DNA of 64,000 nt from a virus (taxonomy: Duplodnaviria; Heunggongvirae; Uroviricota; Caudoviricetes). Below are positions 18,318 to 59,520 of this stretch, piece after piece. Location of the stretch: the IMG/VR virus record IMGVR_UViG_2571042445_000002. The stretch is one strand, 5' to 3'. Each line of letters opens with the position of its first letter. The first letter of the stretch is position 1. The translations under genes were made by a program, and so were the position numbers. The notes below the pieces were generated by a model. The model did no database searches. It had not been told where the DNA came from and worked only from the letters and a program-made list of their open reading frames with translations.

Positions 18318-18350
18318 ATGTTAGAAAATTAAATTGATGTTTCTAATCAA
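18318..18350. promoter_or_regulatory. operator-like motif pair
   Basis: ATGTTAGAAAATTAAA plus partial inverted copy TTTCTAA. Confidence 0.45.
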
Positions 18351-18539
18351 GAATGTATGATTTATATCGTCACTAAAAAACAGCATCTGATAAAAATTCT
18401 GTTGATCTTTCTAATGTTCAGGCTTATATTCATGCCGTCGTAGCAAATTCTGCGACCGGGTTTAGCAGCCTGAATGTTAGTGCGGACAACCGCAGATATC
18501 CGATATTGCGGTATTTTTGTGTCCGTAAAACCGCGTTAC

Positions 18540-18677
18540 GCCCAAATTATGGTGGGGCGTGATGGGGAGGCTTCGGCCTGCTGGTTTCACTAACGCCAGT
18601 CTGCTAACCCCGTCACGTCCTGCCACCTGTTTAGCAGCGGGTAGCAGGTTGTTAAACCTGTTAGTGAGGCCGTAACT
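18540..18677 (+). ncRNA. candidate c4-like antisense RNA / structured leader
   Basis: hairpins (e.g. gaggc-UUCG-gcctg) in the leader just upstream of icd-like gene. Confidence 0.25.
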
Positions 18678-31172: not shown

Positions 31173-31206
31173 GTATTAGAAAATTAAAATTGTTTTTCTA
31201 ACATAT
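31173..31206. promoter_or_regulatory. operator-like inverted pair
   Basis: TGTATTAGAAAATTAA and inverted TTTTTCTAACATA at the entry to the ncRNA/tRNA island. Confidence 0.5.
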
Positions 31207-32515: not shown

Positions 32516-32591
32516 TGATGGTGTAGCTCAGTGGTAGAGCAGTTGGCTGTTAACCAACTGGTCGGTGGTTCGAATCCACTCACCATCGCCA
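32516..32591 (+). tRNA. tRNA-Asn (anticodon GTT)
   Basis: 76 nt; acceptor gatggtg/caccatc, anticodon loop CTGTTAA, T-loop TTCGAAT, 3' CCA encoded. Confidence 0.85.
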
Positions 32592-32593
32592 AT

Positions 32594-32669
32594 GCCGGTT
32601 TAGCTCAGTTGGTAGAGCGCCTGCCTTGTAAGCAGGATGTCAGCGGTTCGAGTCCGTTAACCGGCACCA
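32594..32669 (+). tRNA. tRNA-Thr (anticodon TGT)
   Basis: 76 nt, 2 nt after tRNA-Asn; anticodon loop CTTGTAA; T-loop TTCGAGT; CCA encoded. Confidence 0.85.
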
Positions 32670-32671
32670 AC

Positions 32672-32760
32672 ACAACAGGTAAGGGTATTTTGCGACGTCG
32701 GAGATCGCCGAGCTTGGCAGAGGGTTCGAATCCCTACGAAGTACCCTTACCGTTGTGATG
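32672..32760 (+). ncRNA. tRNA-like hairpin element or pseudo-tRNA
   Basis: 15-bp stem acaacaggtaagggta/tacccttaccgttgt enclosing a T-arm-like GGTTCGAATCC; no full cloverleaf. Confidence 0.3.
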
Positions 32761-32857
32761 AATGCACAGGCTGATGTGCCGCAACTACAGTAGTGCGCGC
32801 TTTGCGGGGCTTGCTACAACCCTGTGTCGGAGTTCAGCACCGACCATCACAATCACT

Positions 32858-32944
32858 GGAGAGTAGGGAGCATGGTGCTCAAGCGGTCTTGAAAACCGTC
32901 CCATTGCGCAAGCGATGATGGTTCGATTCCATTACTCTCCGCCA
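32858..32944 (+). tRNA. tRNA-Ser-like (anticodon TGA), long variable arm, atypical D-arm
   Basis: acceptor ggagagt/actctcc, anticodon loop CTTGAAA, long variable arm, T-loop TTCGATT, CCA encoded. Confidence 0.5.
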
Positions 32945-33200
32945 GCGCAACGTTAAGAGTATTTGGCTAATTAAGCGAATGCCGGAAGCAGAACCGGATC
33001 ACCAAATGCTCTTACCATTGCGGTGAATGCGGCTAAGCGCACGCGGAACAGTTAAAACAGTAAAGGTGGTCTTTTTACTGGCGTAACGAGAATCCATAAG
33101 TGATCCGGCGTTAATTGTTAACTGGTTAACGTCACCGGGAGGCACCCGGCACCGCAACCTAACAGCAATGGCGTTTTGTCTTAAAAGGTGGCTGCAAGTG

Positions 33201-33329
33201 ATGGATTTTTGGGCGTTTGCCGATAAAAACCCGGAGTGGACATTATTGTTTCTGCTGGTGGTTGCATACGGGGTAGAGCAAGCGGCAAAAGCCTTACGCG
33301 GTTCTGGCAAAAAGCGTAAGCGTAATTAA
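33201..33329 (+). CDS. small membrane peptide (42 aa)
   Basis: ATG ORF MDFWAFADKNPEWTLLFLLVVAYGVEQAAKALRGSGKKRKRN, one TM helix plus basic tail; below the ORF-track size cutoff. Confidence 0.25.
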   Translation: MDFWAFADKNPEWTLLFLLVVAYGVEQAAKALRGSGKKRKRN

Positions 33330-33338
33330 CAGTAATCT

Positions 33339-33414
33339 GGCCCTTTAGCTCAGTGGTTAGAGCGGGCGACTCATAATCGCACGGTCACCGGTTCAAGTCC
33401 GGTAGGGGCCACCA
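33339..33414 (+). tRNA. tRNA-Ile2 (anticodon CAT, lysidine type)
   Basis: 76 nt, nearly identical over D-arm and anticodon arm to E. coli tRNA-Ile2 as I recall it; CCA encoded. Confidence 0.8.
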
Positions 33415-34822: not shown

Positions 34823-34855
34823 TGTTAGCAAATTGATATTAATTTTCTAATACAT
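34823..34855. promoter_or_regulatory. operator-like inverted pair upstream of the Lpa-like gene
   Basis: GTGTTAGCAAATTG and inverted TAATTTTCTAATACA. Confidence 0.5.
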
Positions 34856-38228: not shown

Positions 38229-39266
38229 TTACCAGAGTTTTGCCGCGTACATCGTTTGTGTGAATGTGTACCCATAGCGTTCTTCAACGCTTTTACCGTA
38301 TTTTTTCCTGGCTTCAGTAAGGCGGATGCCTGTCAGGTCATCGCCGGAGGCAATCATAACTTCCAGTAGTTCCAGGTCCATTTTATCCAGCCTTGCCATT
38401 GCATCTTTAGCCTCTTGAATTTTCCGGCTAACGATCTGGTGTATGGCTGGATCGGCTTCGGCCAGCATTTTATCTGATTTGTTTTTTAAACTCTGATTGC
38501 GGATATCAATGTTTCTCAGGATATATGACTTCACGACGTAGCTTGGCTGCTGCTTTTCCAGATCACGAACCCGATAAAGGTCAAATTCGCCGAGAAGTCC
38601 GCACGGAAGCGGTTTAATGCCAGTGTAAATGGTAAGGGTGCGGCGCTCACCAACGTTGTTAACAACGGGAATCTCTGTGTTTGCTTTTTTTGCAAAGATC
38701 AGCGCACCGTGCGTACCCACTCTGAAGCGTGAAAGTCCATTGTTGCCCTCAATATTGGTGGTAATCACCACATCGGTATAACCTTCTTTTCTTGCGCGGT
38801 ATACCTCGCCCTCACGTTCAGCGGCGAAGAATCTGCGTTCTTCTTCAAGCGCACCGACAACCTGTGAAAATATCCTGTTTTTCATGCTTTTCTTTATAGT
38901 TTTATCGTATTTTTTCAACAGGTCTTCGCGCGTAAATGTTCTCGTTGTGGTTGCGCTTTGCATAACGATATGCGTACTCTGATTAGTATCCTCAACAATG
39001 AATGGGATCGGTAAATAAACCGACTCAACAATGTTTGAGGCTTTGTCATCATCCTTGCGACACAGATCAACAAAGGCTTTCCATTCGGCTATGCATTTTT
39101 CAGCTTCTTCTAATACAGCCGGATCATGTGTTAATGCAACATGGCGAAATTCCTCGCCAACATAACTGGTATCATGGAAAACAGAGTTTGCGACCACCAG
39201 CTCTTTCCACCGTTCAGCGGTTTGCAGGAACCGTTTGTACTCATTCTCGATCGACTTCTTACTCAT
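38229..39266 (-). CDS. candidate master repressor (C1 position); function unproven
   Basis: 345 aa from the internal Met (MSKKSIENEY); convergent with pacB as P1 c1 is; operator motifs in its own 5' region. Confidence 0.3.
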   Translation of the reverse strand: MSKKSIENEYKRFLQTAERWKELVVANSVFHDTSYVGEEFRHVALTHDPAVLEEAEKCIAEWKAFVDLCRKDDDKASNIVESVYLPIPFIVEDTNQSTHIVMQSATTTRTFTREDLLKKYDKTIKKSMKNRIFSQVVGALEEERRFFAAEREGEVYRARKEGYTDVVITTNIEGNNGLSRFRVGTHGALIFAKKANTEIPVVNNVGERRTLTIYTGIKPLPCGLLGEFDLYRVRDLEKQQPSYVVKSYILRNIDIRNQSLKNKSDKMLAEADPAIHQIVSRKIQEAKDAMARLDKMDLELLEVMIASGDDLTGIRLTEARKKYGKSVEERYGYTFTQTMYAAKLW

Positions 39267-39279
39267 TATTCCTACTCGA

Positions 39280-39296
39280 TTTAGTTTTCTAACATA
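39280..39296. promoter_or_regulatory. operator-like motif in the candidate repressor promoter
   Basis: TTTAGTTTTCTAACATA about 15 bp upstream of the proposed start. Confidence 0.5.
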
Positions 39297-43630: not shown

Positions 43631-44011
43631 TCAAATATTGGAACCATATAGTTCACGTAGTTTTTCCGCTACTGAAGATACGGGGATTTCACCAGTTGCA
43701 GCCCCCACCGCAAGTTCCACCAGCACGGGAGAATCATATACCTGTATACCGTTACGGCGTAGAAATAGCAGCGCACTGTTTAGCGCGGTACGCTTATTGG
43801 CATCATTGAATATATGCCCTCTCGCTGTAGCCACCAGGTAGGTGGCGGAGACTTCGAAAAGGTCGGTGATCTCTTCGTAGGCAACTCTGGCCTGAACTCT
43901 CCCGATAATGGCCTCTGCCCTACCCGGATCTGACATTCCCGGCAGGCCGCCGTAGCGGTTTATATTCGCATCATGAAGCGCAATAAGTTCTTCCGGTGAT
44001 ATATGCCTCAT
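43631..44011 (-). CDS. doc: Doc toxin (Fic-family)
   Basis: 126 aa, near-identical to P1 Doc as I recall it ([17 protein letters not shown]...[19 protein letters not shown]). Confidence 0.9.
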
Positions 44012-44232
44012 TATCGGTTAACCAGTTCCTTGTTGGTGGAGTCCAGGGTGTCAAACAGGGATGCAAATTCAGCATCCAGCGCCGCTTTTTTGTAGGCTTC
44101 GAAAGTAGCCTTGCTGACAATTACTGCTGGCTCACGGCCTCTGCGGGTGATTTCAACCTCTTCCCCAGCTTCAACATTGTTGAGCACTTCAGAAAGGTTG
44201 CCGCGCGCGGTACGGAAGTTAATGGATTGCAT
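44011..44232 (-). CDS. phd: Phd antitoxin
   Basis: 73 aa from [41 protein letters not shown]; overlaps doc by 1 nt. Confidence 0.9.
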
Positions 44233-44408: not shown

Positions 44409-45971
44409 ATGAAAATGACAAGTATTCAACAACGTGCAGAGCTTCATCGCCAGATCTGGCAAATTGCTAACGATGTCAGGGGGTCAGTCGATGGATGGGA
44501 TTTTAAGCAATACGTTCTGGGCGCACTTTTCTACCGTTTTATCAGCGAAAATTTTTCCAGCTATATTGAAGCCGGTGATGACAGTATCTGTTATGCGAAA
44601 CTGGATGACAGCGTAATTACTGATGACATTAAAGACGATGCCATCAAAACTAAAGGCTACTTCATCTACCCCAGTCAGCTTTTCTGCAACGTAGCTGCGA
44701 AAGCAAATACCAATGACAGACTGAATGCGGATTTAAACAGCATCTTCGTTGCTATCGAAAGTTCTGCTTACGGTTACCCTTCAGAAGCTGACATCAAAGG
44801 TTTGTTTGCTGATTTCGATACTACCAGTAACCGCCTGGGTAACACCGTTAAAGATAAAAATGCCCGCCTGGCTGCGGTTCTGAAAGGGGTTGAAGGGCTA
44901 AAACTTGGTGACTTCCACGAACATCAGATTGACCTGTTCGGTGACGCCTATGAGTTCCTGATTTCTAACTATGCGGCGAATGCTGGTAAGTCAGGCGGCG
45001 AGTTCTTTACACCGCAGCACGTCTCTAAGCTGATTGCACAACTGGCTATGCACGGGCAGACCCACGTTAACAAAATCTACGACCCGGCAGCAGGTTCCGG
45101 TTCGCTGTTGTTGCAAGCTAAAAAACAGTTTGATGACCATATCATCGAAGAAGGTTTTTTTGGTCAGGAAATCAACCATACGACCTATAACCTGGCGCGT
45201 ATGAACATGTTTTTGCACAACATCAACTACGACAAGTTTGATATCAAGCTGGGCAATACGCTGACTGAACCGCACTTCAGAGATGAAAAACCGTTTGATG
45301 CCATCGTTTCTAACCCGCCGTATTCGGTGAAATGGATTGGCAGCGATGACCCGACGCTGATTAACGATGAACGTTTTGCCCCGGCTGGCGTTCTGGCCCC
45401 CAAATCCAAAGCTGACTTTGCGTTTGTATTACATGCACTGAACTATCTTTCTGCCAAAGGTCGTGCTGCGATTGTCTGCTTCCCAGGCATTTTTTACCGT
45501 GGCGGCGCGGAGCAGAAAATCCGTCAGTATCTGGTTGATAATAACTATGTCGAAACCGTGATTTCACTGGCACCGAACCTGTTCTTTGGCACCACCATTG
45601 CCGTAAACATTCTGGTGTTGTCTAAACATAAAACAGATACAAAAGTTCAGTTTATTGATGCCAGCGAACTGTTCAAAAAAGAGACTAACAACAATATCCT
45701 GACCGATGCCCATATCGAACAGATTATGCAGGTATTTGCCAGCAAGGAAGATGTTGCTCATCTGGCGAAATCTGTTGCGTTTGAGACTGTTGTCGCGAAT
45801 GACTATAACCTGTCGGTGAGCAGCTATGTGGAAGCGAAAGATAATCGCGAAATTATCGATATCGCTGAGCTGAATGCGGAACTGAAAACCACGGTCAGCA
45901 AAATCGACCAGTTGCGCAAAGATATTGATGCGATTGTGGCTGAAATTGAAGGCTGCGAGGTGCAGAAATGA
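44409..45971 (+). CDS. hsdM: Type I restriction-modification methyltransferase subunit
   Basis: 520 aa; SAM motif [10 protein letters not shown] and catalytic SNPPYSVKW. Confidence 0.85.
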
Positions 45972-47254
45972 GCGAGTTGAGTTATCTGGAAAAATTGCTG
46001 GATGGGGTTGAGGTTAAGTGGTTGCCATTGGGGAACGTCGCTGAAATTTATGGTGGCCTAACAGGAAAGAGTAAATCTGATTTTGAGAACGGTAATGCCA
46101 GATATGTTTCATACAAAAAAATATTTGGTTATTTAGATGTGAATGATTACCCTACTGATTATGTATATATTAGTGAGGGAGAAAGACAAAATAAAGTAAG
46201 ATATGGGGATGTTTTATTTACTGGCTCATCTGAAATTGCTGATGAAGCAGGCATGTCCTCCGCCGTTACAGTACACTTCGATGAATCAGTGTATTTAAAC
46301 AGCTTTTCTTTTGGTATCAGATTCAGTAACAGCATAAAAATCAAACCGGAGTTCGCAAAATACCTTTTTCGAACCCATTTCATGCGCTCTGAAATAGCAA
46401 AAACAGCTAGTGGTGTAACACGCTTTAATATTTCAAAATCAAGATTTAAAAAAATACTGGTTCCTATCATTTGTCCTAATGATCCAGAAAAATCCCTTGC
46501 CATCCAGTCTGAAATCGTTCGGATTCTGGATAAATTTACTGAGCTTACAGCTGAGCTTACAGCTGAGCTTACAGCTGAGCTTACCATGCGTAAAAAACAG
46601 TACAACTACTATCTTGACCAGTCGCTAAGTTTTAAAGAGGGTGAGGTCGAGTTGAAAACGTTGGGAGAGATGGGGACACTTATAAGAGGCAAACGCTTTG
46701 TGAAATCCGACATAATTCCCAAGGGAGTACCGTGTATTCACTACGGTGAAATGTATACCCATTACCGCATCTGGGCGGATAAAGCAAAATCGTATATCTC
46801 TGTTGAATTAGCGTCCAAGTTAAGAAAAGCCTCATGCGGAGATGTTGTTTTTGTCTCTGCGGGTGAAACAATTGCAGATATTGGTCGTGGAACAGCCTGG
46901 TTAGGCGATGAAGATGTTGTTATTCATGACGCATGTTTTTTCTATAAAAGTTCATTGAACCCCAAGTATGTGGCCTACTTCTCAAGAACAAATTTCTTCC
47001 ACGATCAGATTAAAAAATCGATCTCTTCGGGGAAAATTTCTGCCATCAATGCCAAAGGCTTTGAAAAAGTGATTATTCCAGTTCCTTCACCAGAAGAACA
47101 AGCACGCATCGTTGCTTTCTTGGACAAATTCGACACATTGACAAGCTCCATCACCGAAGGCTTACCCCGTGAAATAGAACTACGCCAGAAGCAGTACGAG
47201 TACTATCGTGATTTACTGTTCAGTTTCCCAAAACCTGAAACTGTCAGTAATTAA
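45968..47254 (+). CDS. hsdS: Type I restriction-modification specificity subunit
   Basis: 428 aa; two AT-rich target-recognition domains around a central conserved region with TAEL repeats; ATGA overlap with hsdM. Confidence 0.8.
46541..46585 (+). repeat. 12-bp tandem repeat (gagcttacagct, 3.75 copies) encoding (TAEL)n in HsdS
   Basis: direct read of the sequence; protein [22 protein letters not shown]. Confidence 0.9.
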
Positions 47255-47375
47255 TTGACCATTGCTACCGACCGGGCCACCTTAACACCCGGTCAGTATA
47301 TAGACTATTTTTTACACGCTGGAAGTCACCATTAACGCCCTTCCGGCCCTTGCCAGACGGCACAAAGGATGCGCT

Positions 47376-50300
47376 ATGACTCATCAAACACACACCATTG
47401 CTGAATCCAATAACTTTATCGTTCTTGATAAATACATCAAAGCTGAGCAAACAGGCGACAGCTATCAGAGCGAATCGGACCTGGAACGTGAACTGATTCA
47501 GGACCTGCAAAATCAGGGCTATGAATTTATATCCGTAAAATCACAGTCAGCGATGCTGGCCAACGTTCGGGAACAGCTTCAGAGCCTCAATGGTGTGATG
47601 TTTAATGACAGAGAGTGGCGGCGTTTCACGGAGCAGTATCTGGACAACCCGAGCGATGGCATTCTGGATAAGACCCGTAAAATCCATATCGACTATATTT
47701 GCGACTTTATTTTTGATGACGGGCGTCTTGAAAATATCTATCTGATAGATAAAAAGAATCTCATGCGCAATAAGGTGCAGATTATCCAGCAGTTTGAACA
47801 GACGGGTTCTCATGCTAACCGTTATGACGTCACGATCCTGGTTAATGGTTTACCGCTGGTGCAAATCGAACTAAAAAAACGCGGGGTGGCGATTCGTGAG
47901 GCTTTCAACCAGATACATCGTTACAGTAAAGAGAGTTTTAACAGCGAAAATTCCCTGTTTAAGTATCTGCAACTGTTTGTCATTTCTAACGGCACCGATA
48001 CCCGTTACTTTGCCAACACCACAAAGCGCGATAAAAACAGTTTTGACTTCACAATGAACTGGGCGAAATCAGACAACACGCTGATTAAAGACCTCAAAGA
48101 CTTTACCGCTACCTTTTTCCAGAAACATACTCTGCTGAATGTTCTGGTGAACTACAGCGTTTTTGACAGTAGTCAGACGCTACTGGTGATGCGACCGTAC
48201 CAGATTGCAGCTACCGAACGAATTTTATGGAAAATCAACAGTTCCTATAAAGCGAAAAACTGGTCCACTCCCGAAAGTGGTGGCTTTATCTGGCACACCA
48301 CCGGTTCCGGTAAAACACTGACCAGCTTTAAAGCCGCGCGTCTGGCAACAGAACTGGACTTTATTGATAAAGTCTTCTTCGTGGTCGACAGAAAAGACCT
48401 CGATTACCAGACGATGAAGGAATATCAGCGTTTTTCGCCAGACAGCGTCAACGGCTCGGAAAATACCGCAGGACTTAAACGAAATCTGGATAAGGACGAT
48501 AACAAAATTATCGTCACCACTATTCAGAAACTTAATAACCTGATGAAAGCAGAAAGCGACCTGCCTGTATACAATCAGCAAGTGGTGTTTATATTTGATG
48601 AATGTCACCGCAGCCAGTTTGGAGAAGCACAGAAAAACCTGAAGAAGAAATTCAAACGCTATTATCAGTTTGGTTTTACCGGCACACCTATTTTCCCGGA
48701 AAACGCCTTAGGCTCAGAAACAACCGCCAGCGTATTTGGCCGTGAATTGCATTCATATGTTATTACCGATGCGATTCGTGACGAAAAAGTGCTCAAATTC
48801 AAGGTGGACTACAACGATGTGCGGCCACAGTTTAAGTCTTTAGAGACAGAAACTGACGAGAAAAAACTGAGTGCGGCTGAAAATCAGCAGGCGTTTCTTC
48901 ATCCCATGCGTATTCAGGAAATCACGCAATATATCCTGAACAACTTCCGCCAGAAAACCCACCGTACTTTCCCTGGTTCCAAAGGTTTTAATGCCATGCT
49001 GGCAGTAAGCAGCGTGGATGCTGCAAAAGCCTATTATGCGACGTTTAAACGGTTACAAGAGGAAGCCGCTAATAAATCGGCTACCTATAAACCGCTGCGT
49101 ATTGCGACAATCTTCTCCTTTGCCGCCAATGAAGAACAAAATGCCATTGGTGAAATTTCCGATGAAACTTTTGATACCAGCGCAATGGACAGCAGTGCTA
49201 AAGAGTTTCTGGACGCTGCAATTCGTGAATATAACAGCCATTTTAAAACTAACTTTAGCACCGACAGTAACGGTTTTCAGAACTACTATCGTGATTTAGC
49301 CCAGCGGGTTAAAAATCAGGATATCGATCTGCTAATTGTCGTGGGGATGTTCTTAACCGGCTTCGATGCTCCAACATTGAACACGCTATTCGTCGATAAA
49401 AACTTACGTTATCACGGCCTGATGCAGGCATTTTCCCGCACTAACCGCATTTATGACGCCACTAAAACCTTCGGTAATATCGTCACTTTCCGGGATCTGG
49501 AACGCTCAACTATTGATGCCATAACGCTGTTTGGTGACAAAAACACCAAAAATGTGGTGTTAGAAAAGAGTTATACAGAGTATATGGAAGGCTTTACTGA
49601 TGCTGCTACAGGTGAAGCTAAACGCGGCTTCATGACAGTAGTTTCAGAACTGGAACAACGGTTCCCTGACCCTACCAGTATTGAAAGTGAAAAAGAGAAG
49701 AAAGACTTCGTTAAACTGTTTGGCGAATACCTGCGTGCCGAGAACATCCTGCAAAACTATGATGAATTTGCCACGCTAAAAGCCCTGCAACAAATCGATC
49801 TTAGCGATCCTGTTGCGGTAGAAAAATTCAAAGCAGAACATTATGTGGATGATGAAAAGTTCGCTGAATTGCAAACAATTCGTCTCCCTGCTGATCGCAA
49901 GATTCAGGATTATCGTTCTGCCTATAACGATATTCGCGACTGGCAGCGCCGTGAGAAAGAAGCTGAGAAAAAAGAGAAATCAACCACTGACTGGGATGAC
50001 GTAGTTTTTGAGGTCGATTTGCTGAAGTCTCAGGAAATAAACCTGGATTATATCCTTGGACTGATTTTCGAACACAACAGACAAAATAAAGGCAAGGGCG
50101 AAATGATCGAAGAGGTCAAACGCTTAATTCGTTCAAGTCTAGGGAACCGTGCTAAAGAGGGCCTGGTGGTCGATTTTATTCAGCAAACGAACCTGGATGA
50201 TTTACCGGACAAAGCCAGCATCATTGACGCATTCTTTACGTTTGCTCAACGCGAACAGAAACGTGAAGCAGAAGCATTGATAAAAGAAGAAAATCTCAAT

Positions 50301-50492
50301 GAAGAGGCGGCGAAACGCTATATTCGCACATCTTTAAAACGCGAATACGCCACCGAAAATGGTACAGGATTAAATGATACATTACCAAAACTTAGTCCGT
50401 TAAATCCGCAATATAAAACGAAAAAACAGACGGTTTTCCAGAAAATCGTCTCGTTTATTGAGAAGTTTAAAGGCGTAGGCGGAAAAATATAG
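47376..50492 (+). CDS. hsdR: Type I restriction-modification endonuclease subunit
   Basis: 1038 aa; Walker [15 protein letters not shown]-box [12 protein letters not shown]2 helicase layout. Confidence 0.85.
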
Positions 50493-50523: not shown

Positions 50524-50907
50524 TTAAACCCGCAAGAGATCGTGGGATTCTAAATAGCTAATATACTCCCCTTCCCCATCCGAGATAACACCTTCGTAAT
50601 ACTCGCGCTGCTCGTTGAGTCTGGATTTTGCAGCTTCCAGTTGTTTTGTTAGCTCTGCAATACGGCAAACATCGTTGATACGCCTTTCCTCTAATGCGTT
50701 GTTCTCATTCAGTAGTGCCAAAGCAACCTTTGGATTAAAGGCAGCAATAAATTCAGCGTTGTTTTTCAGAACGTGTTGCGCAATGGCCTGACTACTTAGT
50801 CGGACCTCATAACCACGTGCGCCACGGTGTGGTTTATATGAGTCCCAGTCTCCCCACGTTGCTTTCACTGCCGCCTCACGCAGTACCTGATAGTCAATCT
50901 TGCTCAC
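50524..50907 (-). CDS. Ead/Ea22-like prophage early protein (paralogue family)
   Basis: 127 aa; N-terminal 65 aa near-identical to the gene at 55782-56273; GTG start after GGAGGCAACCA. Confidence 0.4.
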   Translation of the reverse strand: MSKIDYQVLREAAVKATWGDWDSYKPHRGARGYEVRLSSQAIAQHVLKNNAEFIAAFNPKVALALLNENNALEERRINDVCRIAELTKQLEAAKSRLNEQREYYEGVISDGEGEYISYLESHDLLRV

Positions 50908-51352
50908 TGGTTGCCTCCTTATTAATCAGTTTATACAGGTGCACCACAGTCACAGAGAGTGCATCCATCGCTCGTTTATCCAGGCGCGGGGCCAGAGCAA
51001 CCAGTTCATTTATTGCAATCTGAATACGCTGCTCCGCCGCCAGCGTCGCGCGATTGCTCTCCAGTTCTGCAATTCGGCACATGGCATCAATATTTGTGTC
51101 TTCCAGGCGCTTAATTTCGCCCAGGAGTGCCAGCGCAACTTTTGGTGGGATAGCCGCGATATAACGGGCATTAGCACCAGCATTCCTTTGCCCATCAATG
51201 CCAGGCCAGTCAATAAAGTATCCGCAATGCCTACCCTCAGACGTGCGCGCAGGATAAATGCCGTTATGACCCGGCAAAATATATGCTACCCATTCATCTT
51301 GCGTTGCCTGTTCCGCCGCCTCGCGCAGTTCTTGATAGTTAATTTTGCTCAC
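50894..51352 (-). CDS. Ead/Ea22-like prophage early protein (paralogue family)
   Basis: 152 aa; MSKINYQELREAAE N-terminus related to neighbours. Confidence 0.4.
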   Translation of the reverse strand: MSKINYQELREAAEQATQDEWVAYILPGHNGIYPARTSEGRHCGYFIDWPGIDGQRNAGANARYIAAIPPKVALALLGEIKRLEDTNIDAMCRIAELESNRATLAAEQRIQIAINELVALAPRLDKRAMDALSVTVVHLYKLINKEATSEQD

Positions 51353-51605
51353 TGGTTGCCTCCGCTTCCCACGTTTTCAGACTTTCACCACAGAACGGGC
51401 AAAATGAAACTCGAATAGGCGATTTAGAAAATTCACCAGACCGCAGCATGATCAGGTCTTGTGAATTAATTAATGCATGGTTATAAATTCTGTATTTCAG
51501 AAGCCCTTTTCGCGTCGTGTATTCAGCGTCATACTCCAGCGATTGTGCCAAAGCCGCGCACGGTTCTATCTTGTTGCCATTAATTTGGCATTTTGACTCA
51601 CTCAC
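51339..51605 (-). CDS. hypothetical protein with C-terminal Cys motif
   Basis: 88 aa, CPFCG motif; same conserved initiation region. Confidence 0.3.
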   Translation of the reverse strand: MSESKCQINGNKIEPCAALAQSLEYDAEYTTRKGLLKYRIYNHALINSQDLIMLRSGEFSKSPIRVSFCPFCGESLKTWEAEATSEQN

Positions 51606-52188
51606 TGGTTGCCCCCTGAATACGCTTAAACTCGATTACCCATACCCACGGGTTAGATAGCCAGTTATCCTGCCCGTAAATACTGCGCCAGATATCACCA
51701 AAACCAACGCGATAAACAGCTTCAGGTGGCGTAATCTTGTACGTCGCCGGAGTTGCGCCTTCTGCTTTAGCATCTGCCTCGCTCATGTCATGCAGCCGTT
51801 CCACACGCACGTCGGTAATTTCCAGAAGAATGCGCGATGCCCAGCGCGGCATGTGAATTGATGGCGTCCACTTTTCTGATACTGGTTTATTACAAACATC
51901 GACCGGAACCCGGTGCGTTTGTTCTGTCCAGGAGTTACGCACGCTTGCGCGATAAACCAGCGTTGCGACGTCCGTCGCTTTGCCATGTACCCGGTAGGTT
52001 TCGCGAACCCAAATACGATCGCCCGGTTGACCATATGGACAATGCTTGGCAAGCAACTCTGCGGCAACTGCTCGTCCATAGAATTTTTCTTCAACAATCC
52101 TGCGAGTCTGTGTTTTATTCCCGCCAAGAATTGCCCGGACCATCTCATCGTTAAAAATCATCCCGCGTTCTTTCATTTTTTGATCCAC
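51598..52188 (-). CDS. ASCH-like domain prophage protein (putative)
   Basis: 196 aa; N-terminal MIFNDEMVRAILGGNKTQTRR...GDRIWVRE resembles ASCH/PUA-like domains. Confidence 0.35.
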   Translation of the reverse strand: MDQKMKERGMIFNDEMVRAILGGNKTQTRRIVEEKFYGRAVAAELLAKHCPYGQPGDRIWVRETYRVHGKATDVATLVYRASVRNSWTEQTHRVPVDVCNKPVSEKWTPSIHMPRWASRILLEITDVRVERLHDMSEADAKAEGATPATYKITPPEAVYRVGFGDIWRSIYGQDNWLSNPWVWVIEFKRIQGATSE

Positions 52189-52192
52189 TCCA

Positions 52193-53188
52193 TCAGTTAT
52201 TGAACGTGATCACTCCGCGCTCGATGGCGAAGTCGAAAAGCTGGTTGGCGGCTACGTAAAGGCGTATGCCATGTGCTTTTTCCCATGCCCGGACATCGTT
52301 TTCTGCGCTTCTGGCGCATTCATCGCAAAGAGGAACGGCCCAGCGATCGTGTTCGTTTAACGAGCGGGCGCGGTACATGAACGGGTGATTAACTTTGCCT
52401 CCGCATCCGATGCACGGACGAGAAATCACAAACCGGAGATAAGCCGGGCTTTTACCGAGAACCGCTTTTGGTCGGCGCATATACAGCAGGCCGGAATCCT
52501 CATCTACAGACAGGTTGACGATCTGCTCTGCGGTTATGTCCACCAGCTCACGGGTGCTGTGCTCCCAGGTGATATCCGATTCTTTCAGTGTGCCGGTAGG
52601 GATTTCCTGTTTTGGCTGACAAAATGCAATGCGACCGGCTTCATCTGGCAGCTCGTCTTTCAGATTCCGGCGAATGGCCCAAAAAGTGAGTTCAACCATG
52701 CTCAGATCGCGTTCTGGCGGTAGTTTTAACTCGCTCGCAGCCCAGTTCATAACCCAGTTGGCACGATTCAGGGATAACTGGTCGTCCAGCTTGCTGTACC
52801 CCTTCATCATGTATTCCGCATCATGCTTCCAGCACAGGCGAACGGCAGAGCCGTTATAGAAATGAGTGGTTAGCTGGTGGCTGCAATCGCGCTTATCGTG
52901 CGCCTGGCAATCGTGGATATTGGAACTTACCCAATGAACAAGCGAATCTTCACCGCCTAATGCGTTAAATACGCGCTCGCTTTGAAAAAATGCTTTCAGA
53001 GACTGGTTGGCAACCAGCGAATAGTTCAGATCCACTACGCCATCTGGCGTGTTTTCAGCCTGTTCGCGCGGAAGTGGAGAGATAATGAAACGGCGACCTG
53101 CGCCAATGTAGTTGCTGGTGGGCTTGTCTACCGGAAAGACAGCCACACCAGCTCCGTTTACGAAATGAGGTGTGATTATTGCACTCAT
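52193..53188 (-). CDS. DUF968-like Cys-rich prophage protein (putative)
   Basis: 331 aa; paired Cys motifs CIGCGG...CDECA near the C-terminus. Confidence 0.35.
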   Translation of the reverse strand: MSAIITPHFVNGAGVAVFPVDKPTSNYIGAGRRFIISPLPREQAENTPDGVVDLNYSLVANQSLKAFFQSERVFNALGGEDSLVHWVSSNIHDCQAHDKRDCSHQLTTHFYNGSAVRLCWKHDAEYMMKGYSKLDDQLSLNRANWVMNWAASELKLPPERDLSMVELTFWAIRRNLKDELPDEAGRIAFCQPKQEIPTGTLKESDITWEHSTRELVDITAEQIVNLSVDEDSGLLYMRRPKAVLGKSPAYLRFVISRPCIGCGGKVNHPFMYRARSLNEHDRWAVPLCDECARSAENDVRAWEKAHGIRLYVAANQLFDFAIERGVITFNN

Positions 53189-53230: not shown

Positions 53231-53263
53231 TGTTAGAAAATTAAAATCAATATTCTAATATCA
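53231..53263. promoter_or_regulatory. operator-like inverted pair
   Basis: TGTTAGAAAATTAAAA and TATTCTAATATCA upstream of the minus-strand DUF968 gene. Confidence 0.5.
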
Positions 53264-53292: not shown

Positions 53293-54009
53293 TTACGACT
53301 GCCCTCCCTTCACCTGCTTTAGCGTCAGATTTCCGCAAAAAACCGCACCAGTGTCTATGTAGTGCTGGTTCCAGAAAGATTTCGGGCTGCTTACTGGCGT
53401 ATGCCCGAAAATAAAGCTATCTGCACCAGTGATCATTCCACCAACACCATCAACCGCGTCATAAAATCGCTCACGCCGCCAGGTAACATTGAGATCGCTA
53501 ACAGGTTTACCAAACTGGTATTCGTTATCAGGATAGTCGGCATGGGCTATAACGATAGTTTCATGCCCGGTGTTCAACTCAATGATATAGGGCAAACGTC
53601 TTACCAGCTCCACCAGCGCCCTGGCTAATATTTCCCGATCAGCGTCCAGCATGAAGAACCATTGACCACCATTCATTAGCCAGTTATTCACGTTGCCTGC
53701 GGGACTTAACGCATCGATCATTAATCGCTCGTGGTTTCCCATAACCGACCGAAACCAGGGCATCTGCAATAGCTCCAGGCATTCAACATTTTCGGTGCCG
53801 CGATCGATAAGGTCGCCAACCGATATCAGTAAATCCTGTGTCGGGTCAAAGTCCACACGATGAAGTTCAGACATCAATCTGGTGTAGCAACCATGCAGAT
53901 CACCAACAACCCATATGTTTCTGTAGCCTGAACCATCAATACGGGTATATAAATTCACTTCATGCAGCGCCTGGGTCATGCGGCAACCTTCTCCCGCAGC
54001 CAGATACAA
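53293..54009 (-). CDS. Ser/Thr protein phosphatase (PPP-family metallophosphatase)
   Basis: 238 aa; motifs [20 protein letters not shown]. Confidence 0.7.
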
Positions 54010-54287
54010 ACCGGGCCATCTTCAGTGTCATGAATAGAGCCAACAAACCATCCTTCGCCCTCTGGTCGCTCTGGTTCCCAGGCGGCAATATCGGGACCAT
54101 CTGCGTCCAGATTAAAATGATCTTCATCCATACTGCGAATAGTCCACTGAAGATTATTTTCCTTCATCCAGGCGTCAAATTCCTCAGTGGATATATATTC
54201 ACGACCTGCGCAAAACTTTTCATACTCCGGATGTGTCCAGCAGCCATATTCATCACGTTCTACCGGCATTTCTTTAATGATGCTCAC
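53976..54287 (-). CDS. hypothetical protein
   Basis: 103-aa acidic ORF. Confidence 0.3.
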
Positions 54288-54508
54288 TCTTCATCCTCCA
54301 AGTCGGCAACGGCCTCCATCACATCAGAACCGCGAATAACCTCAAAAGCACGGCAGGCCATTTCAAACACCTGTTGTTCTTGCGGATGCGGTGACTCCCA
54401 ATACTTAAAACCAGGTCGATGCTCGTAACCCAACATGGAATAAAAATCGCCAGCAAGTTCAATCGCGGCATCAACAAGTTCGCGATTTGTCATCGTCTGT
54501 TCTGTCAT
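54284..54508 (-). CDS. hypothetical protein
   Basis: 74-aa acidic ORF, coupled. Confidence 0.3.
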   Translation of the reverse strand: MTEQTMTNRELVDAAIELAGDFYSMLGYEHRPGFKYWESPHPQEQQVFEMACRAFEVIRGSDVMEAVADLEDEE

Positions 54509-54780
54509 TTTGTTTTCTCCTGTCTGAACATCACTATCATCAGGTCGCCTTTTGTCGCTATCCTGGCTGTTGTACCTGGTTCAATGCGGCTAAGCTCAAA
54601 TGCGTCATAGAACGCTTCTAATGCCTTCTGGCGTAGTTCCTGTTTGCGCCGTTTTTTCCACTGTTTCAGGAAAATGGAACCCAGCCAACGCCATGTACGG
54701 GACATGATGTAAAGCCAACCGAGAAGTGCCAGACCGGTATTTAGGAGCGTATCGATCGTTATTGTCGTGTCGATATTCAC
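54505..54780 (-). CDS. small membrane protein
   Basis: 91 aa, N-terminal TM helix then basic region. Confidence 0.3.
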   Translation of the reverse strand: MNIDTTITIDTLLNTGLALLGWLYIMSRTWRWLGSIFLKQWKKRRKQELRQKALEAFYDAFELSRIEPGTTARIATKGDLMIVMFRQEKTK

Positions 54781-55460
54781 TGGCTGCCTCCTTTGCGAAG
54801 CTGTTCAGCAATACTTACGCATATCTCTGCGCCTCTAATCAGCCCCGGAACGTTCTTGTTTGGCCCAACTTCACCATCGACAAAATCAATCATCGCGTTA
54901 CGAGCCATATCCACGCCCTGCGCACGTACTTCAGCCAGGAAAGCATCGGTGGCTGGCGTTTCCCGTGAACGGTAAGACCAAACAATGTCGTCTGTTTCAC
55001 TGGGTTCTTCATGAGAGCAATTTGGGCAGACAGCAGTACAACCAGCATGATCTTCTATGAGCATCTTCAGCCACGAGTTCTCCTCCGCCAGCGTCACGCG
55101 ACTGGCCTCCAGTTCTGCTACGCGCTGTTTTGCAGCATCCAGTTCAATCGACAATTTTTCCAACTGCTCTTTATGCTTTTTATATTCCTGATATGCGTGC
55201 CAAGACTGACCTTTGCGCACACTATCCGTGATATCAGTAATCTGTTCTGGTGTTAGCGTGGTCAGTGGCTGTGCTGGGAAAATCAGCACTTTCCCGGCAT
55301 CCCAATCAAAACCCACCTGAATTGACTGAACCTCAACTGATGGTGTTGAACCGATGCGACCAGGCGAATGAACAACGATCGTTACATCCATATCGCGACG
55401 ATGGCTGTGGTTGTTGGACAAAATACGATTCACCAACTCCGAGAATTTGGAAAATTTCAT
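54777..55460 (-). CDS. Ea22-like coiled-coil protein
   Basis: start at internal Met (MKFSKFSEL) overlapping upstream stop (ATGA); C-terminal half aligns with the paralogue at 56270-56944. Confidence 0.4.
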
Positions 55461-55813
55461 GCTGATTCCCTTTGCTCTTCCTGGATAATGTTGTTGCAAT
55501 CTTTCACGCACTCGTTGCAGATGAAAACGTTGTCCCCGGCAATTAACTTTTTAACGGTGTGCTGGGATTTGTTGCAGAAGCTGCAATAAAGCGTTGGACT
55601 GGCTGATACGGATGGTGCGCCAGATGTCAGCCGCGCGATGTCGTTCTTGCGACGCAATATCACACGGCTGCACTCGACCAGCATCTCCGGGGATATATCC
55701 TCCTCCGTGGCGAGCGCCTCCAGACGTTCGAGCAAGCGAAATACTTTTTCCTGGGTGATTGCAGAATGCGATGTGGTCATCTCACTCTCCTTTGAGGCGA
55801 ATGCCTGTTGCAA
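55457..55813 (-). CDS. small protein with C-terminal ClpX-type zinc-binding domain
   Basis: 118 aa; [39 protein letters not shown] closely matches the ClpX N-terminal C4 zinc-binding domain as I recall it. Confidence 0.55.
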
Positions 55814-56273
55814 TGCTGTTTATGATGCTGTCAGTGCATGGGGTAGAAAGCTGGGCATCTCCAGCAATTTTCATGACCTCAACATCTGCATATCGAATAC
55901 CGAGGTGTATCAGACCGGCTATGCCTGACTTAAGCCGAGCATTTTCCATAAATAGAACCTTTGCCCGCTGTTTTTCTGCTTCAAGCTCAACACGCAGTTT
56001 CCCTACCGTAAGCGCAATATCCTCGTTCTCCTGGTCGCGGCGTTTTATGTATTGCTGGTTTCTTTCCCGTTCATCCAGTAGTGCCAAAGCAACCTTTGGA
56101 TTAAAGGCAGCAATAAATTCAGCGTTGTTTTTCAGAACGTGTTGCGCAATGGCCTGACTACTTAGTCGGACCTCATAACCACGTGTGCCACGGTGTGGTT
56201 TATATGAGTCCCAGTCTCCCCACGTTGCTTTTTCTGCCGCTTCACGCAGTGCCTGATAGTCAATCTTGCTCAC
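55782..56273 (-). CDS. Ead/Ea22-like prophage early protein (paralogue family)
   Basis: 163 aa; 5' about 200 nt near-identical to 50700-50907. Confidence 0.4.
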
Positions 56274-56944
56274 TGGTTGCCTCCTTTGCGAAGCTGGGCA
56301 GCGAACCTATCAGCTGCATCCGCGCAAGCAGAAGCAACGGAATCAAAAAATGGATCATCTCCTGTATCGCGCATCGTCAAAGCGAATGCCTCCACCCCTT
56401 GTGCCTGTATTTCTACAAGGGATGCCTTAGATGTAGTGCTTTTCGCCTCGCCTAATTCGTTATGAGCGATGTTCGCTATACATGCGATGTCTATATCTGG
56501 ATGATTAATTGGGCAATGGCTAAGAATTGCCTCAAGTGCTGCTTTTTTGCTTTGGCATTCCGCCACCAGCGCCCCGCAATTGCTTTCCAGCTCTGCAATA
56601 CACTTTTTAGCGGCCTCCAGCTCAACACGCAGATTCTCAAGCGTTAGAGCCTTCTCCACGTTCTCGTCCAGCAGTTCAATCACATCAGGATCGCTACCAT
56701 CAACTACTGATATGCGCGAATTTTTGTAATGCTCGTCAGCATAAGTTCGTCCAGTTTTGAAGCATCCGTCATCCTCCATGCCGGAACAGGCATAAACAAC
56801 ATGTGATCCAGATATGCGCTGCATTGACATTTCCTCGCCACAAACAGGGCATTTAGGCGCTGGTTTCGGTGAATAACGTTCACGTAACGGATAGTAAAGC
56901 TCGATCTCCGCCAGTTGCTCTGGCGTTAAACCTTCAGACTTCAT
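56270..56944 (-). CDS. Ea22-like coiled-coil protein
   Basis: 224 aa; C-terminus ends with the same AEQLRKGG(S/N)Q motif as the 54777 gene. Confidence 0.4.
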   Translation of the reverse strand: MKSEGLTPEQLAEIELYYPLRERYSPKPAPKCPVCGEEMSMQRISGSHVVYACSGMEDDGCFKTGRTYADEHYKNSRISVVDGSDPDVIELLDENVEKALTLENLRVELEAAKKCIAELESNCGALVAECQSKKAALEAILSHCPINHPDIDIACIANIAHNELGEAKSTTSKASLVEIQAQGVEAFALTMRDTGDDPFFDSVASACADAADRFAAQLRKGGNQ

Positions 56945-57251
56945 GTACTCTCCTTTCGAAATAAACGTACTGATTAATCATTCCCAGGGGCATTTCGAGT
57001 TTTTCTGCGATCTCACGGCGGGGAACACCACACTGATGAAGCTGCCGCGCCAGTTCTATATCGCTCTGCCGGTATTTGGCTGACTGGTGAAAGTCTCCTT
57101 TCAGAATCATGCTGATCCGCAGTTGCCGCGCTTTAGTCCTGACAGCACCACCGGTACGCCCGATCAGTCTCCCAATACCCTCGACTGTCATAGTCCCGGC
57201 GCACTGGCGGAGTATCATGATTTCTGCCCTTCCCCATCCCCGCCAGCTCAC
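56934..57251 (-). CDS. HTH-containing small regulatory protein (putative)
   Basis: 105 aa with HTH-like segment GVPRREIAEKLEMP. Confidence 0.3.
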   Translation of the reverse strand: MSWRGWGRAEIMILRQCAGTMTVEGIGRLIGRTGGAVRTKARQLRISMILKGDFHQSAKYRQSDIELARQLHQCGVPRREIAEKLEMPLGMINQYVYFERRVHEV

Positions 57252-57886
57252 GCAGAACTCCTTCTAACCAAAAGAACGCCATCTTCAGAAACAATGTTGC
57301 AGGACTTCAGGTAATTCATTGCCACTTTCGGTAATGGATTCTTTGGATCGGCGTTTGCCAGGGATTTCGATAACCTCAAGATAAATTTGATCATTACCTT
57401 CTGACGGAGCTTGTGCTCATGAGATGCAGACAGGTAATAGGAAATGGTATGGGCTAAACGCTCACGAAGCTGTTCTGTGCCGTGATATACAGCAGCGATA
57501 TCACGCAGTGCATTGACCAGTTCCCGGTAAATATGCGGAGCAACCTGGCATTCAATGTTGGTTGGTGACTCATAAATTACATTCAGCCCCAGCTTTTGAG
57601 CCAGCTCGTGCTCTGCACGAGCGCCAACTGATTCCTCCCACCCCTTGAGCAAATAGACCGCATTAGCCGAACGCAACATTGCAAGGCAAATATCCATGTA
57701 TTCACTCTGGCAGAGGCCAGCAGGTAACAGCGCCGGATTCAGAACAATATGCCCTACCTCCATCAGCTCTTTTGCTTTCGAAAAAAACGCTGTGCGGTTG
57801 TAGTCGGGATAACCAGTCATCGGACCCGCGATGTAAATTTTCATAATGCGTTTTGACATCAAAGTTTCCCCAGGAACGTTACGCAA
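57248..57886 (-). CDS. DUF4406-like (nucleoside deoxyribosyltransferase-fold) protein
   Basis: 212 aa; N-terminal YIAGPMTG...VLNP...LKGWEESVGARAEHE matches the DUF4406 pattern. Confidence 0.4.
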   Translation of the reverse strand: MRNVPGETLMSKRIMKIYIAGPMTGYPDYNRTAFFSKAKELMEVGHIVLNPALLPAGLCQSEYMDICLAMLRSANAVYLLKGWEESVGARAEHELAQKLGLNVIYESPTNIECQVAPHIYRELVNALRDIAAVYHGTEQLRERLAHTISYYLSASHEHKLRQKVMIKFILRLSKSLANADPKNPLPKVAMNYLKSCNIVSEDGVLLVRRSSA

Positions 57887-58053
57887 AAGTTGATGAGAGC
57901 AAAGAGTTCAATGCCCAGCTCAAACAACGCCAGGACAGTGAAAAACAGGGCATATAGCAACCCAATTTCTGTACCGGATTGCTGGTGGATTGCACTTATT
58001 GCGACAAGCATCATGACCTCCTGATATAGCGTCTGAAAAAAAAGTATCTTCAT
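57859..58053 (-). CDS. small membrane protein
   Basis: 64 aa, two hydrophobic helices. Confidence 0.25.
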   Translation of the reverse strand: MKILFFQTLYQEVMMLVAISAIHQQSGTEIGLLYALFFTVLALFELGIELFALINFCVTFLGKL

Positions 58054-58055
58054 TT

Positions 58056-58089
58056 TGTGTTAGAAAATCAATTTTGATTTTCTAACACA
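58056..58089. promoter_or_regulatory. perfect palindromic operator
   Basis: TGTGTTAGAAAATCAATTTTGATTTTCTAACACA between divergent genes. Confidence 0.6.
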
Positions 58090-58720: not shown

Positions 58721-59369
58721 TTAAGTTGAATTGTGAGATTCGCCGTTGTACATTCACAACCGATTGGTACACCGGTCAACTTTTTGAGACAAACCGTTTG
58801 GTTTTTCGTATGATTGCCGCCGCCATACCAATGGCGGTGCAATATAGGTGGCTGAAAAGCCCCCGTTGACTCACGGTGTTCCAACCTTTATTGCGCCGCC
58901 ACCAGACCGTGGAACAGTCGATGGCGGCTCCGAAAGCAAGGAGTCACTACACTATGAACAGCTACTGTCTTTTCCCATCACTCGTTGTCCGCCACTCACG
59001 CGATAATCTGCATTCTTTACTCGCGCTGGGGGTGTCAAAATGACCGTTCGCTACCTCAACTTTCAAATCCAGAACATCACTGGCGGTTGCTATGACTGGT
59101 TTGTCACTCTCGGAAAAGAAGTGATCACCGGAAAGCTGGATGAAGTGAAAGCTAAAGCAATGGCCTACGCCTGCAAGCAAGCCCAAAAGAAGAAAAGAAA
59201 AGCATAAGAAAACACACAGTTGCGCCCTGGCATTATCGTGGGGTATATTTCTACGGCACCTTAGAAAAACGGGTGCCGGGATTGGAACCCCGGATAATGT
59301 CAAAGGCGACACAGACGCCGAACGCGTCTTTTTTTGTGTCATGCCATCGCACAGCCATACTTAGCGTTT

Positions 59370-59520
59370 AGCTCAGAGATCAATGGTAGTGCTGGCTGGG
59401 CTGCCGAAAGGCAGGCCGGTTCCCTTTGACGCCGGTAGTTCCAACCCAGTCAGTGCTACCGCCATTGAGATTGGAACCTCACGCGGTAGCTCCTTAACTT
59501 AGTCAAAGGAGGCTGCCAAT
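59370..59520 (+). ncRNA. candidate c4-like antisense RNA / structured leader (copy 2)
   Basis: hairpins (ctgcc-GAAA-ggcag) upstream of the second icd-like gene. Confidence 0.25.

Follow-up and report, generated by a model that had tools for sequence, protein, structure and literature searches.

A NinI-like phosphatase gene, ppp, between putative repressor operators in a P1/D6-like phage-plasmid of Escherichia coli

What use might a temperate phage-plasmid have for a phosphoprotein phosphatase? The question is raised by positions 53293-54009 of a 64,000-nucleotide stretch of viral DNA (the window, by which we mean the whole of this stretch). A first-pass annotation had proposed that this interval encodes a phage Ser/Thr phosphatase which, expressed from a repressor-controlled early operon, could counter kinase-based host responses. 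As a sequence feature, the gene adds nothing: the P1 genome record has included ppp from the start, annotations of it exist for D6 and for hundreds of E. coli plasmids, and laboratories use the lambda homologue as a standard reagent. Its role is another matter. Phosphorylation has recently been recognized as a battleground between phages and bacteria, on which T7 disarms defences with its kinase and bacteria are defended by the KKP and Stk2 kinases, and a role assignment would concern an enzyme that has been an orphan for 30 years.

Start codon and family of the enzyme

The list of open reading frames, with their translations, contained one long frame within 53293-54009, on the minus strand, and the plus strand of this interval is full of stops. 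The reading frame of the first-pass annotation is real and intact, but it lies on the minus strand and its start is more likely an ATG at 53979 than a TTG. The 5' end at 54009 is indeed the first TTG of the maximal ORF. We consider the ATG at 53979-53977 as most likely the true start, giving a CDS at 53293-53979 (minus strand, 228 aa), because it forms an ATGA overlap with the TGA stop of the gene before it, is preceded by GAGAAGG, and is the start used both in the RefSeq CDS of plasmid NZ_CP104667 (687 nt, hence of the same length, encoding a 99%-identical protein) and in the annotation of D6 orf97. The 30-nt extension from the TTG (53980-54009, minus strand) lies inside the upstream gene (53976-54287) and is probably not translated as part of ppp.

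The predicted protein matched Pfam Metallophos (PF00149) with 56.9 bits against a cut-off of 21.5 (E 4.9e-15). Its best match among the PHROGs was PHROG 246, 'NinI-like serine-threonine phosphatase' (E 1.7e-105), and its best match in the PDB was 1G5B, the Ser/Thr phosphatase of bacteriophage lambda (E 5.7e-93), with which residues 10-226 could be aligned without gaps at 64% identity over 217 positions. In this alignment, motif I (GDXHG) reads GDLHG and provides the metal ligands D27 and H29, equivalent to lambda D20 and H22. Motif II (GDXXDRG) reads GDLIDRG, with the bridging Asp D56 and the phosphate-binding R60 in the places of lambda D49 and R53, and motif III (GNH[ED]) reads GNHE, with the metal ligand N82 and the catalytic H83 in the places of N75 and H76. 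The C-terminal metal ligands H146 and H193, as well as R169, correspond to lambda H139, H186 and R162. Ppp keeps all of the nine residues (D20, H22, D49, R53, N75, H76, H139, R162 and H186) that we take as the active-site residues of the lambda enzyme. The phosphatase with three intact motifs that had been proposed at the outset is confirmed, and the matches to PHROG 246 and 1G5B make it a Ppp/NinI orthologue. Judged by sequence, Ppp has every feature of the lambda-phosphatase family that can be assessed at this level, and we regard the family as settled because of the 64%-identical crystal structure and of the PHROG and RefSeq annotations. In comparison with lambda NinI (ORF221, 1G5B, the commercial 'lambda phosphatase'), the protein has the same metal-binding, catalytic and phosphate-binding residues and a similar size, but seven extra N-terminal residues.

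Other phosphoesterase families were compared in the same way. The closest NCBIfam models were the equivalogs of E. coli PrpA and PrpB (NF008516 and NF007425). These two enzymes (PphA/PphB) belong to the same lambda-phosphatase-like subfamily and align end to end with Ppp, yet the scores did not reach the curated cut-offs of the models (269.8 for 326 required and 226.4 for 332), which rules out a PrpA/PrpB equivalog. With the ApaH models NF001204 and TIGR00668, the scores were below cut-off as well (67.1 for 176 and 53.9 for 222.85) and the alignment was confined to residues 22-91 of Ppp. A symmetrical Ap4A hydrolase of the ApaH type is thus ruled out by the scores and by this partial, N-terminal alignment. 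The model for the bacterial Pnkp phosphoesterase of RNA repair (TIGR04075) gave 36.9 bits for a cut-off of 750, and Pfam recognized kinase or ligase domains neither in Ppp itself (228 aa) nor in its neighbours. The low score and the missing kinase and ligase modules rule out this assignment too.

These distant relationships bear on the possibility that Ppp naturally acts on nucleotides or RNA ends rather than on proteins. Ppp might be a 2',3'-cyclic phosphodiesterase/3'-phosphatase healing RNA cut by host anticodon nucleases or other ribonucleases, or an ApaH-like hydrolase acting on dinucleoside polyphosphates or Np4-capped RNA. The native activity may not be that of a 'protein' phosphatase, because the in vitro substrates of lambda phosphatase also include phosphodiesters and 2',3'-cyclic nucleotides, as exemplified by its action on bis-pNPP and on nucleoside 2',3'-cyclic phosphates (PMC2190708). 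Furthermore, the next-best relatives of Ppp after lambda phosphatase are the ApaH Ap4A hydrolases and the Pnkp phosphoesterase domain, and its N-terminal domain is common to PHROG 8238 ('RNA ligase') and other families acting on nucleic acids. Yet, as the ApaH and Pnkp scores indicate, these matches are weak and lie mostly in the N-terminal, metal-binding half of the protein, and the operon provides neither a ligase nor a polynucleotide kinase as a partner. We consider a nucleotide or RNA substrate improbable.

The host element and the ppp gene cluster

By sequence comparison, the gene belongs to a P1/D6-like E. coli phage-plasmid, of which it is the Ppp/NinI orthologue. Its product shares 85% of its amino acids with P1 Ppp (P1_gp090) in local tblastn (81% in a global alignment), 85% with phage D6 orf97 and 62% with the lambda enzyme (tblastn), and is 99% identical to a RefSeq "metallophosphoesterase" of E. 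coli plasmids. Homologues of sit, darA/darB, prt/pro, pacA/pacB, lpa, cre and phd-doc are arranged in the window in the order found in D6, and two C4 antisense RNAs and a tRNA cluster are also present. The phd-doc addiction module (43631-44232, minus strand) encodes proteins that are 100% (Phd) and 91% (Doc) identical to those of P1 (tblastn). Together with a type I restriction-modification (R-M) locus, phd-doc is cargo of the plasmid that would benefit a lysogen.

Matches to the ppp DNA were found in 683 of 5426 complete E. coli genomes. They amounted to 718 places, 702 on plasmids and 16 on chromosomes, indicating a phage- or plasmid-borne gene, in contrast to the chromosomal prpA and prpB of E. 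coli. The best matches were plasmids of about 90 kb (98.7% identity). Among phages, D6 matched at 86% and P1, P7, RCS47 and others at 84%, the gene being annotated as ppp/Ppp, or as ninI in JL22. A megablast search with the D6-type portal gene retrieved 99 genomes only, a number that is uninformative as a denominator for the frequency of ppp among P1-like plasmids; it is low because the P1-type portal is too divergent for megablast.

The gene is the last of a leftward accessory cluster of 11 genes (53293-58014, minus strand), as delimited by ORF coordinates, Pfam and PHROGs. The first gene of the cluster encodes a 51-aa hydrophobic peptide and the second a DUF4406 protein resembling nucleoside 2-deoxyribosyltransferases. 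These are followed by a small DNA-binding protein (gene 3), two Ead/Ea22-like proteins (genes 4 and 5), a protein in which a ClpX C4 zinc finger is the sole recognized domain (gene 6), a 244-aa protein (gene 7), a DUF4752 protein (gene 8) and a 74-aa protein (gene 9). Gene 10 (53976-54287, minus strand) encodes a 103-aa protein of PHROG 1372 that is 94% identical to D6 orf96, and its stop codon overlaps the start of ppp. All junctions within the cluster are overlaps or gaps of no more than 1-2 nt, an arrangement that shows, at the sequence level, a translationally coupled unit. Beyond ppp lie genes for a DUF968/HNH protein (pdcB-like), an ASCH-like protein (pmgT-like), an 88-aa protein and two Ead/Ea22-like proteins (50524-53188, minus strand). 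This group stops at 50524, head-on to hsdR of the type I R-M locus. The array has one sizeable gap, the 104 bp that separate ppp from the DUF968 gene.

The same gene order is found in D6 (orf88-97), where orf97 is the orthologue of ppp. In P1, by contrast, ppp is flanked by pmgN-O-P and pmgQ, whereas the flanking genes here and in D6 are accessory genes of the lambdoid type. The neighbours of ninI in lambda are ninH and Q, whereas those of ppp are the genes for the PHROG 1372 protein and the DUF968 protein.

In the kinase-kinase-phosphatase (KKP) system (PfkA/PfkB/PfpC of Pf6), a prophage encodes a Ser/Thr phosphatase that counteracts the toxicity of kinases and is linked to defence against phages (PMC11341870). 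This phosphatase, however, is of the PP2C type (PF13672) and is encoded beside two Pkinase genes (PMC11341870), whereas Ppp is a PPP/Metallophos enzyme with no adjacent kinase gene. Pfam recognized no kinase domain in 20 proteins scanned around ppp, and Ppp and nine of its neighbours had no match in PADLOC-DB 2.0 at E <= 0.001. The scans of these 20 neighbours (Pfam) and 10 proteins (PADLOC) thus gave no sign of a partner kinase or of a defence context near ppp, and a KKP-type module is ruled out by the Metallophos rather than PP2C fold assignment and by the lack of a Pkinase among the 20 neighbouring proteins. The sole kinase that we found in the element is Doc, about 9 kb from ppp.

Putative operators at both ends of the cluster

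The proposal that ppp belongs to a repressor-controlled early operon was examined through its operators. The P1-type C1 operator ATTGCTCTAATAAATTT was found neither in the window nor in D6 when up to three mismatches were allowed, while the same search gave 9 matches in two segments of P1. As the repressor claim had no footing on P1 operators, the search was moved to a different 17-mer. Allowing one mismatch at most, we counted 19 occurrences of the half-site core TGTTAGAAAAT in the window, for 1.3 expected, and none of 100 shuffles reached 19 sites. The 17-nt consensus of the sites, TGTTAGAAAATTAATTT, is asymmetric and dispersed. It shares with the P1 operator the A/T-rich 3' half (AAT-N-AATTT) and differs from it in the 5' half. 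Fifteen of the 19 sites fall in the 9.5% of the window that is outside long ORFs (binomial p ~1e-12), and two further sites lie immediately 5' of the real start of c1.

Two arrangements of this motif are found at the ends of the ppp cluster. A perfect 16+16 palindrome, TGTGTTAGAAAATCAA-tt-TTGATTTTCTAACACA, occupies 58056-58089, in the intergenic region that separates ref from gene 1 of the cluster. A second palindromic pair, TATTAGAATATTGATTTTAATTTTCTAACA (minus strand), is found at 53231-53260, within the 104-bp gap that follows ppp and precedes the DUF968 gene. The cluster is thus bracketed by palindromic pairs of the 17-mer. We regard the first palindrome as a putative bivalent operator for a C1-like repressor of the D6 type and the pair at 53231-53260 as a second putative one. 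Reading by eye, we noticed that the right arm of each palindrome contains a candidate sigma-70 -35 element (TTGATT) and that the 53231-53260 pair comes with a candidate promoter TTGATT-17-TATTTT for the genes downstream of ppp; a simple promoter scan did not list the sigma-70 candidates linked to the palindromes.

Sites of the motif occupy places where P1 has operators. Sites at 39284 and 39369 are upstream of c1 (P1 counterpart Oc1), those at 34823/34842 upstream of lpa (Olpa), those at 58058/58077 and 58708 on either side of ref (Oref and Omat), and that at 18319 upstream of the first C4 RNA (Oc4). The pair at 53231-53260, directly after ppp, may be compared with Op86 of P1. In D6 and in the sister plasmid NZ_CP104667, the 17-mer stood at the equivalent places, and it was absent from the P1 segments; the putative operators of the D6-type elements are of another type than those of P1. 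Both palindromes were kept in the alignments with D6 and NZ_CP104667 even though their flanks diverge. We considered the possibility that the 17-mer is the element of Lpa-dependent late promoters. This was rejected because the sites match the places of P1 operators (c1, lpa, ref, c4) and not those of late promoters; the -22 boxes of P1 late promoters (AAGTGACTT) are unrelated to it. A text search of the literature for the 17-mer, the scope of which did not extend to the P1 and D6 genome papers, retrieved unrelated primers only.

The presumed binder of the 17-mer is a 345-aa C1-like prophage repressor (38229-39266, minus strand; PHROG 1678), just upstream of which the c1 sites are located. This protein shares 80% of its residues with D6 orf1, which is annotated as 'prophage repressor, similar to P1 C1', and 21% with P1 C1 itself (E 3e-7). 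In the P1 record, ppp belongs to the series pmgN-pmgO-pmgP-ppp-pmgQ, behind an annotated C1 operator, Oppp (former Op83), and an operator pair, Op86a/b, directly follows pmgQ. In lambda, which has a CI-type repressor whereas the present P1/D6-like plasmid prophage has one of the C1 type, ninI lies between the replication gene P and the antiterminator gene Q, in the rightward early block. We place ppp among early genes rather than among cargo expressed in the lysogen because of its place in P1, in lambda and in the D6-type elements. It appears likely that, in the plasmid prophage, the C1-like repressor keeps the cluster silent, and that Ppp is produced early once repression is lifted. The repressor-controlled early operon proposed initially therefore keeps support from the palindromes that bracket the cluster and from the position of the P1 orthologue behind Oppp, even though the P1 operator itself is absent; this support is inferential. 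The D6-type operator set helps to tell which genes stay silent in the prophage state of this common phage-plasmid lineage.

The location of the operators also bears on a benefit to the lysogen, in which Ppp, made by leaky or stress-induced expression, would modulate host signalling like PrpA/PrpB, or would reverse the action of kinases of superinfecting phages (T7 gp0.7) and so restore defences. In keeping with such a role, the PrpA/PrpB-type models were the closest NCBIfam families, the T7 kinase disarms defences through pervasive phosphorylation (PMC13645617), and the same plasmid carries type I R-M and phd-doc. However, ppp is found behind operator-like palindromes among accessory genes of the lytic type, its P1 and lambda orthologues are in repressed early transcription units, and the PrpA/PrpB equivalog cut-offs were not reached. 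We disfavour a lysogen benefit, and judge it quite improbable, because it requires expression in the lysogen, against which the operators argue.

Role during lytic development and selection on ppp

The reading towards which we lean, with modest confidence and from sequence comparisons, is that the gene is a Ppp/NinI orthologue, silenced by the repressor and expressed early, whose product would erase phosphorylation by kinases in favour of lytic growth. The cluster would be transcribed leftward from a promoter with its -35 element inside the palindromic 17-bp operator pair bound by the C1-like repressor, so that the enzyme would be absent in the plasmid-prophage state and produced early on infection or induction. 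It would act as a binuclear-metal phosphoprotein phosphatase of the lambda-phosphatase family (bacterial PPP) and, by analogy with the biochemistry of lambda phosphatase, would remove in the presence of Mn2+ phosphate from Ser, Thr and Tyr (and His) with little sequence preference. In view of this broad activity of the family, the most likely purpose would be to erase kinase marks: phosphorylation by host, toxin or defence kinases would be cancelled and lytic development would proceed. Such a function would be accessory, not essential.

This agrees with the results of genome-wide CRISPRi in E. coli BW25113, in which P1 ppp was non-essential for plaque formation (PMC10695390). The same held for lambda ninI when Q was supplied (PMC10695390), so that the likeness of the two extends to a non-essential gene among the early genes of a temperate phage. 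Dispensability in K-12 fits a conditional role and, equally, a marginal one. Ser/Thr kinases do take part in phage defence, as exemplified by Stk2 and by the prophage KKP modules (PMC11341870). Four KKP modules expressed in E. coli were found to protect against T4 and T-odd phages and "had no effect on" lambda (PMC11341870), a phage that carries NinI. The KKP observation, the dispensability in K-12 and the conservation of the gene are hints that fit the anti-kinase idea, and the earlier suggestion of Ppp as a counter to kinase-based host responses is, by analogy, a reasonable hypothesis. At least three other roles fit equally well. Our literature search retrieved no report of a lambda-phosphatase-type phage enzyme countering kinase defence, and no natural substrate or phenotype of the phage lambda-phosphatase homologues.

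A bolder version, which we hold to be possible and rather unlikely, is that Ppp/NinI enzymes are general early 'erasers' by which temperate phages cancel both Ser/Thr-kinase immunity and kinase toxins. Among their targets would be KKP-like modules and HipA-like kinases, as well as, for elements of the P1 type, the modification of EF-Tu by the element's own Doc kinase. If true, this would explain the insensitivity of lambda to KKP, as well as purifying selection on the gene despite its dispensability in K-12.

More narrowly, Ppp might be the element's antidote to Doc, removing the phosphate of EF-Tu Thr382 on induction and so allowing translation of phage proteins. Phd and Doc are encoded in the window, and Doc phosphorylates EF-Tu on Thr382, which arrests translation (PMC5851678). 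Moreover, doc and ppp are found together in P1, D6 and the present plasmid, and the ppp cluster includes the protein whose only recognized domain is a ClpX zinc finger. Phd is degraded by the ClpXP protease, as reported by Lehnherr and Yarmolinsky in 1995. Yet, lambda NinI has no doc neighbour in the 38-46 kb stretch examined, and lambda is not known to carry doc at all. Here, a distance of about 9 kb, with an inserted hsd locus, lies between ppp and doc, and the two are in separate transcription units. The co-occurrence of doc and ppp is explained by the shared P1-type backbone, and a literature search retrieved no report of Ppp acting on EF-Tu phosphorylated by Doc. We consider an antidote function very improbable.

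By the Nei-Gojobori method, the dN/dS ratio of ppp was 0.19 for the window versus D6 (dS 0.51), 0.15 versus P1 (dS 0.88) and 0.08 versus NZ_CP104667 (dS 0.05), with an overall range of 0.08-0.23 at dS values of up to 0.96. These values indicate that ppp is under purifying selection. That it is a functionless relic, carried along with mosaic lambdoid accessory DNA, would agree with its non-essentiality in P1 and lambda and with the mosaic neighbours, which are unlike between P1 and the D6-type elements, but this reading, disfavoured and hardly credible to us, is contradicted by the selection data, by the intact frame with all catalytic residues, by the matches in 683 of 5426 complete E. coli genomes and by the retention of ppp, as the sole gene of 16, in P1, the D6-type elements and lambda. 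The comparison covered the 16-gene leftward array (from 57859-58014 down to 50524-50907) and, for P1, the sequence outside positions 50001-71816; Ppp alone had a homologue in both P1 and lambda. Two other proteins of the array have distant relatives in P1, the DUF968 protein (pdcB, 37%) and the ASCH-like protein (pmgT, 43%).

The dispersed 17-mer

The P1 operator ATTGCTCTAATAAATTT is absent from the window, where its place is taken by an asymmetric 17-mer, TGTTAGAAAATTAATTT. The core of this 17-mer has 19 occurrences, where 1.3 would be expected. The 19 sites (17115, 18319, 20427, 28874, 29929, 31174/31193, 31324, 34823/34842, 39284, 39369, 40681, 49558, 50064, 53231, 58058/58077 and 58708) are dispersed over the window and lie for the most part in intergenic DNA. 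Palindromic pairs are formed at 31174/31193, 34823/34842, 53231-53260 and 58056-58089. The D6-type C1-like repressor (38229-39266, minus strand) probably uses the 17-mer as its operator. The two sites at 49558 and 50064 both fall within hsdR and are probably chance occurrences.

Conservation and neighbourhood of the phosphatase gene

A megablast comparison with the DNA of ppp, the NinI-like protein phosphatase gene (53293-54009), gave matches in 683 complete E. coli genomes; most of them are at 80-90% identity, in P1-type plasmids. With the element's portal gene (14401-16086), only 99 genomes matched. Between the P1 and D6 lineages, conservation of ppp at the DNA level therefore exceeds that of a core structural gene, which could reflect either constraint or exchange. 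A type I restriction-modification locus (44409-50492, plus strand) sits between the addiction module phd-doc and the accessory operon; it comprises hsdM (44409-45971), hsdS (45968-47254) and hsdR (47376-50492, 1038 aa), all on the plus strand. This doc-hsd-ppp neighbourhood is common to many P1-like plasmids. At the position of hsd, the sister plasmid NZ_CP104667 carries instead hot, humD, DUF551 and other genes, and phage D6 carries hot, humD, a pmgU-like gene and others.

Other genes of the leftward array

The ppp cluster opens with a gene (57859-58014, minus strand) for a strongly hydrophobic 51-aa peptide, MMLVAISAIHQQSGTEIGLLYALFFTVLALFELGIELFALINFCVTFLGKL; its stop codon overlaps the start of the DUF4406 gene (TGATG), and its D6 homologue is orf88. 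The same cluster encodes a 107-aa protein (55457-55780, minus strand), the sole recognisable domain of which is the N-terminal C4 zinc finger of ClpX (Pfam, 1.2e-17). This protein could act as a decoy for adaptor or substrate recognition by ClpX. Since the ClpXP protease degrades this element's Phd antitoxin, the 107-aa protein might also influence the activation of the kinase toxin Doc.

Four Ead/Ea22-like paralogues (50524-50907, 50894-51352, 55782-56273 and 56270-56944, all on the minus strand) belong to a single leftward gene array, and three of them have near-identical N-termini (MSKI[DN]YQ.LREAA...). Such repeats could drive deletions or rearrangements inside the operon. The window, NZ_CP104667 and D6 are not alike in the gene content of the stretch that bears them.

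Antisense RNAs and tRNAs

Two immI-type regions are present on the plus strand (18424-18630 and 59256-59466), each with a C4 antisense RNA (18545-18630 and 59379-59466; Rfam RF01695, 70 and 77 bits, respectively). The former also contains a c4-a1b1 target element (18424-18476, plus strand) and the latter an isrK-like sRNA match (59256-59334, plus strand). D6 likewise has two icd/antirepressor regions. The tRNAs Asn(GTT), Thr(TGT), Ser(TGA) and Met(CAT) form a cluster at 32517-33414 on the plus strand; at the matching place in D6, Ser, Thr and Asn tRNAs are annotated.
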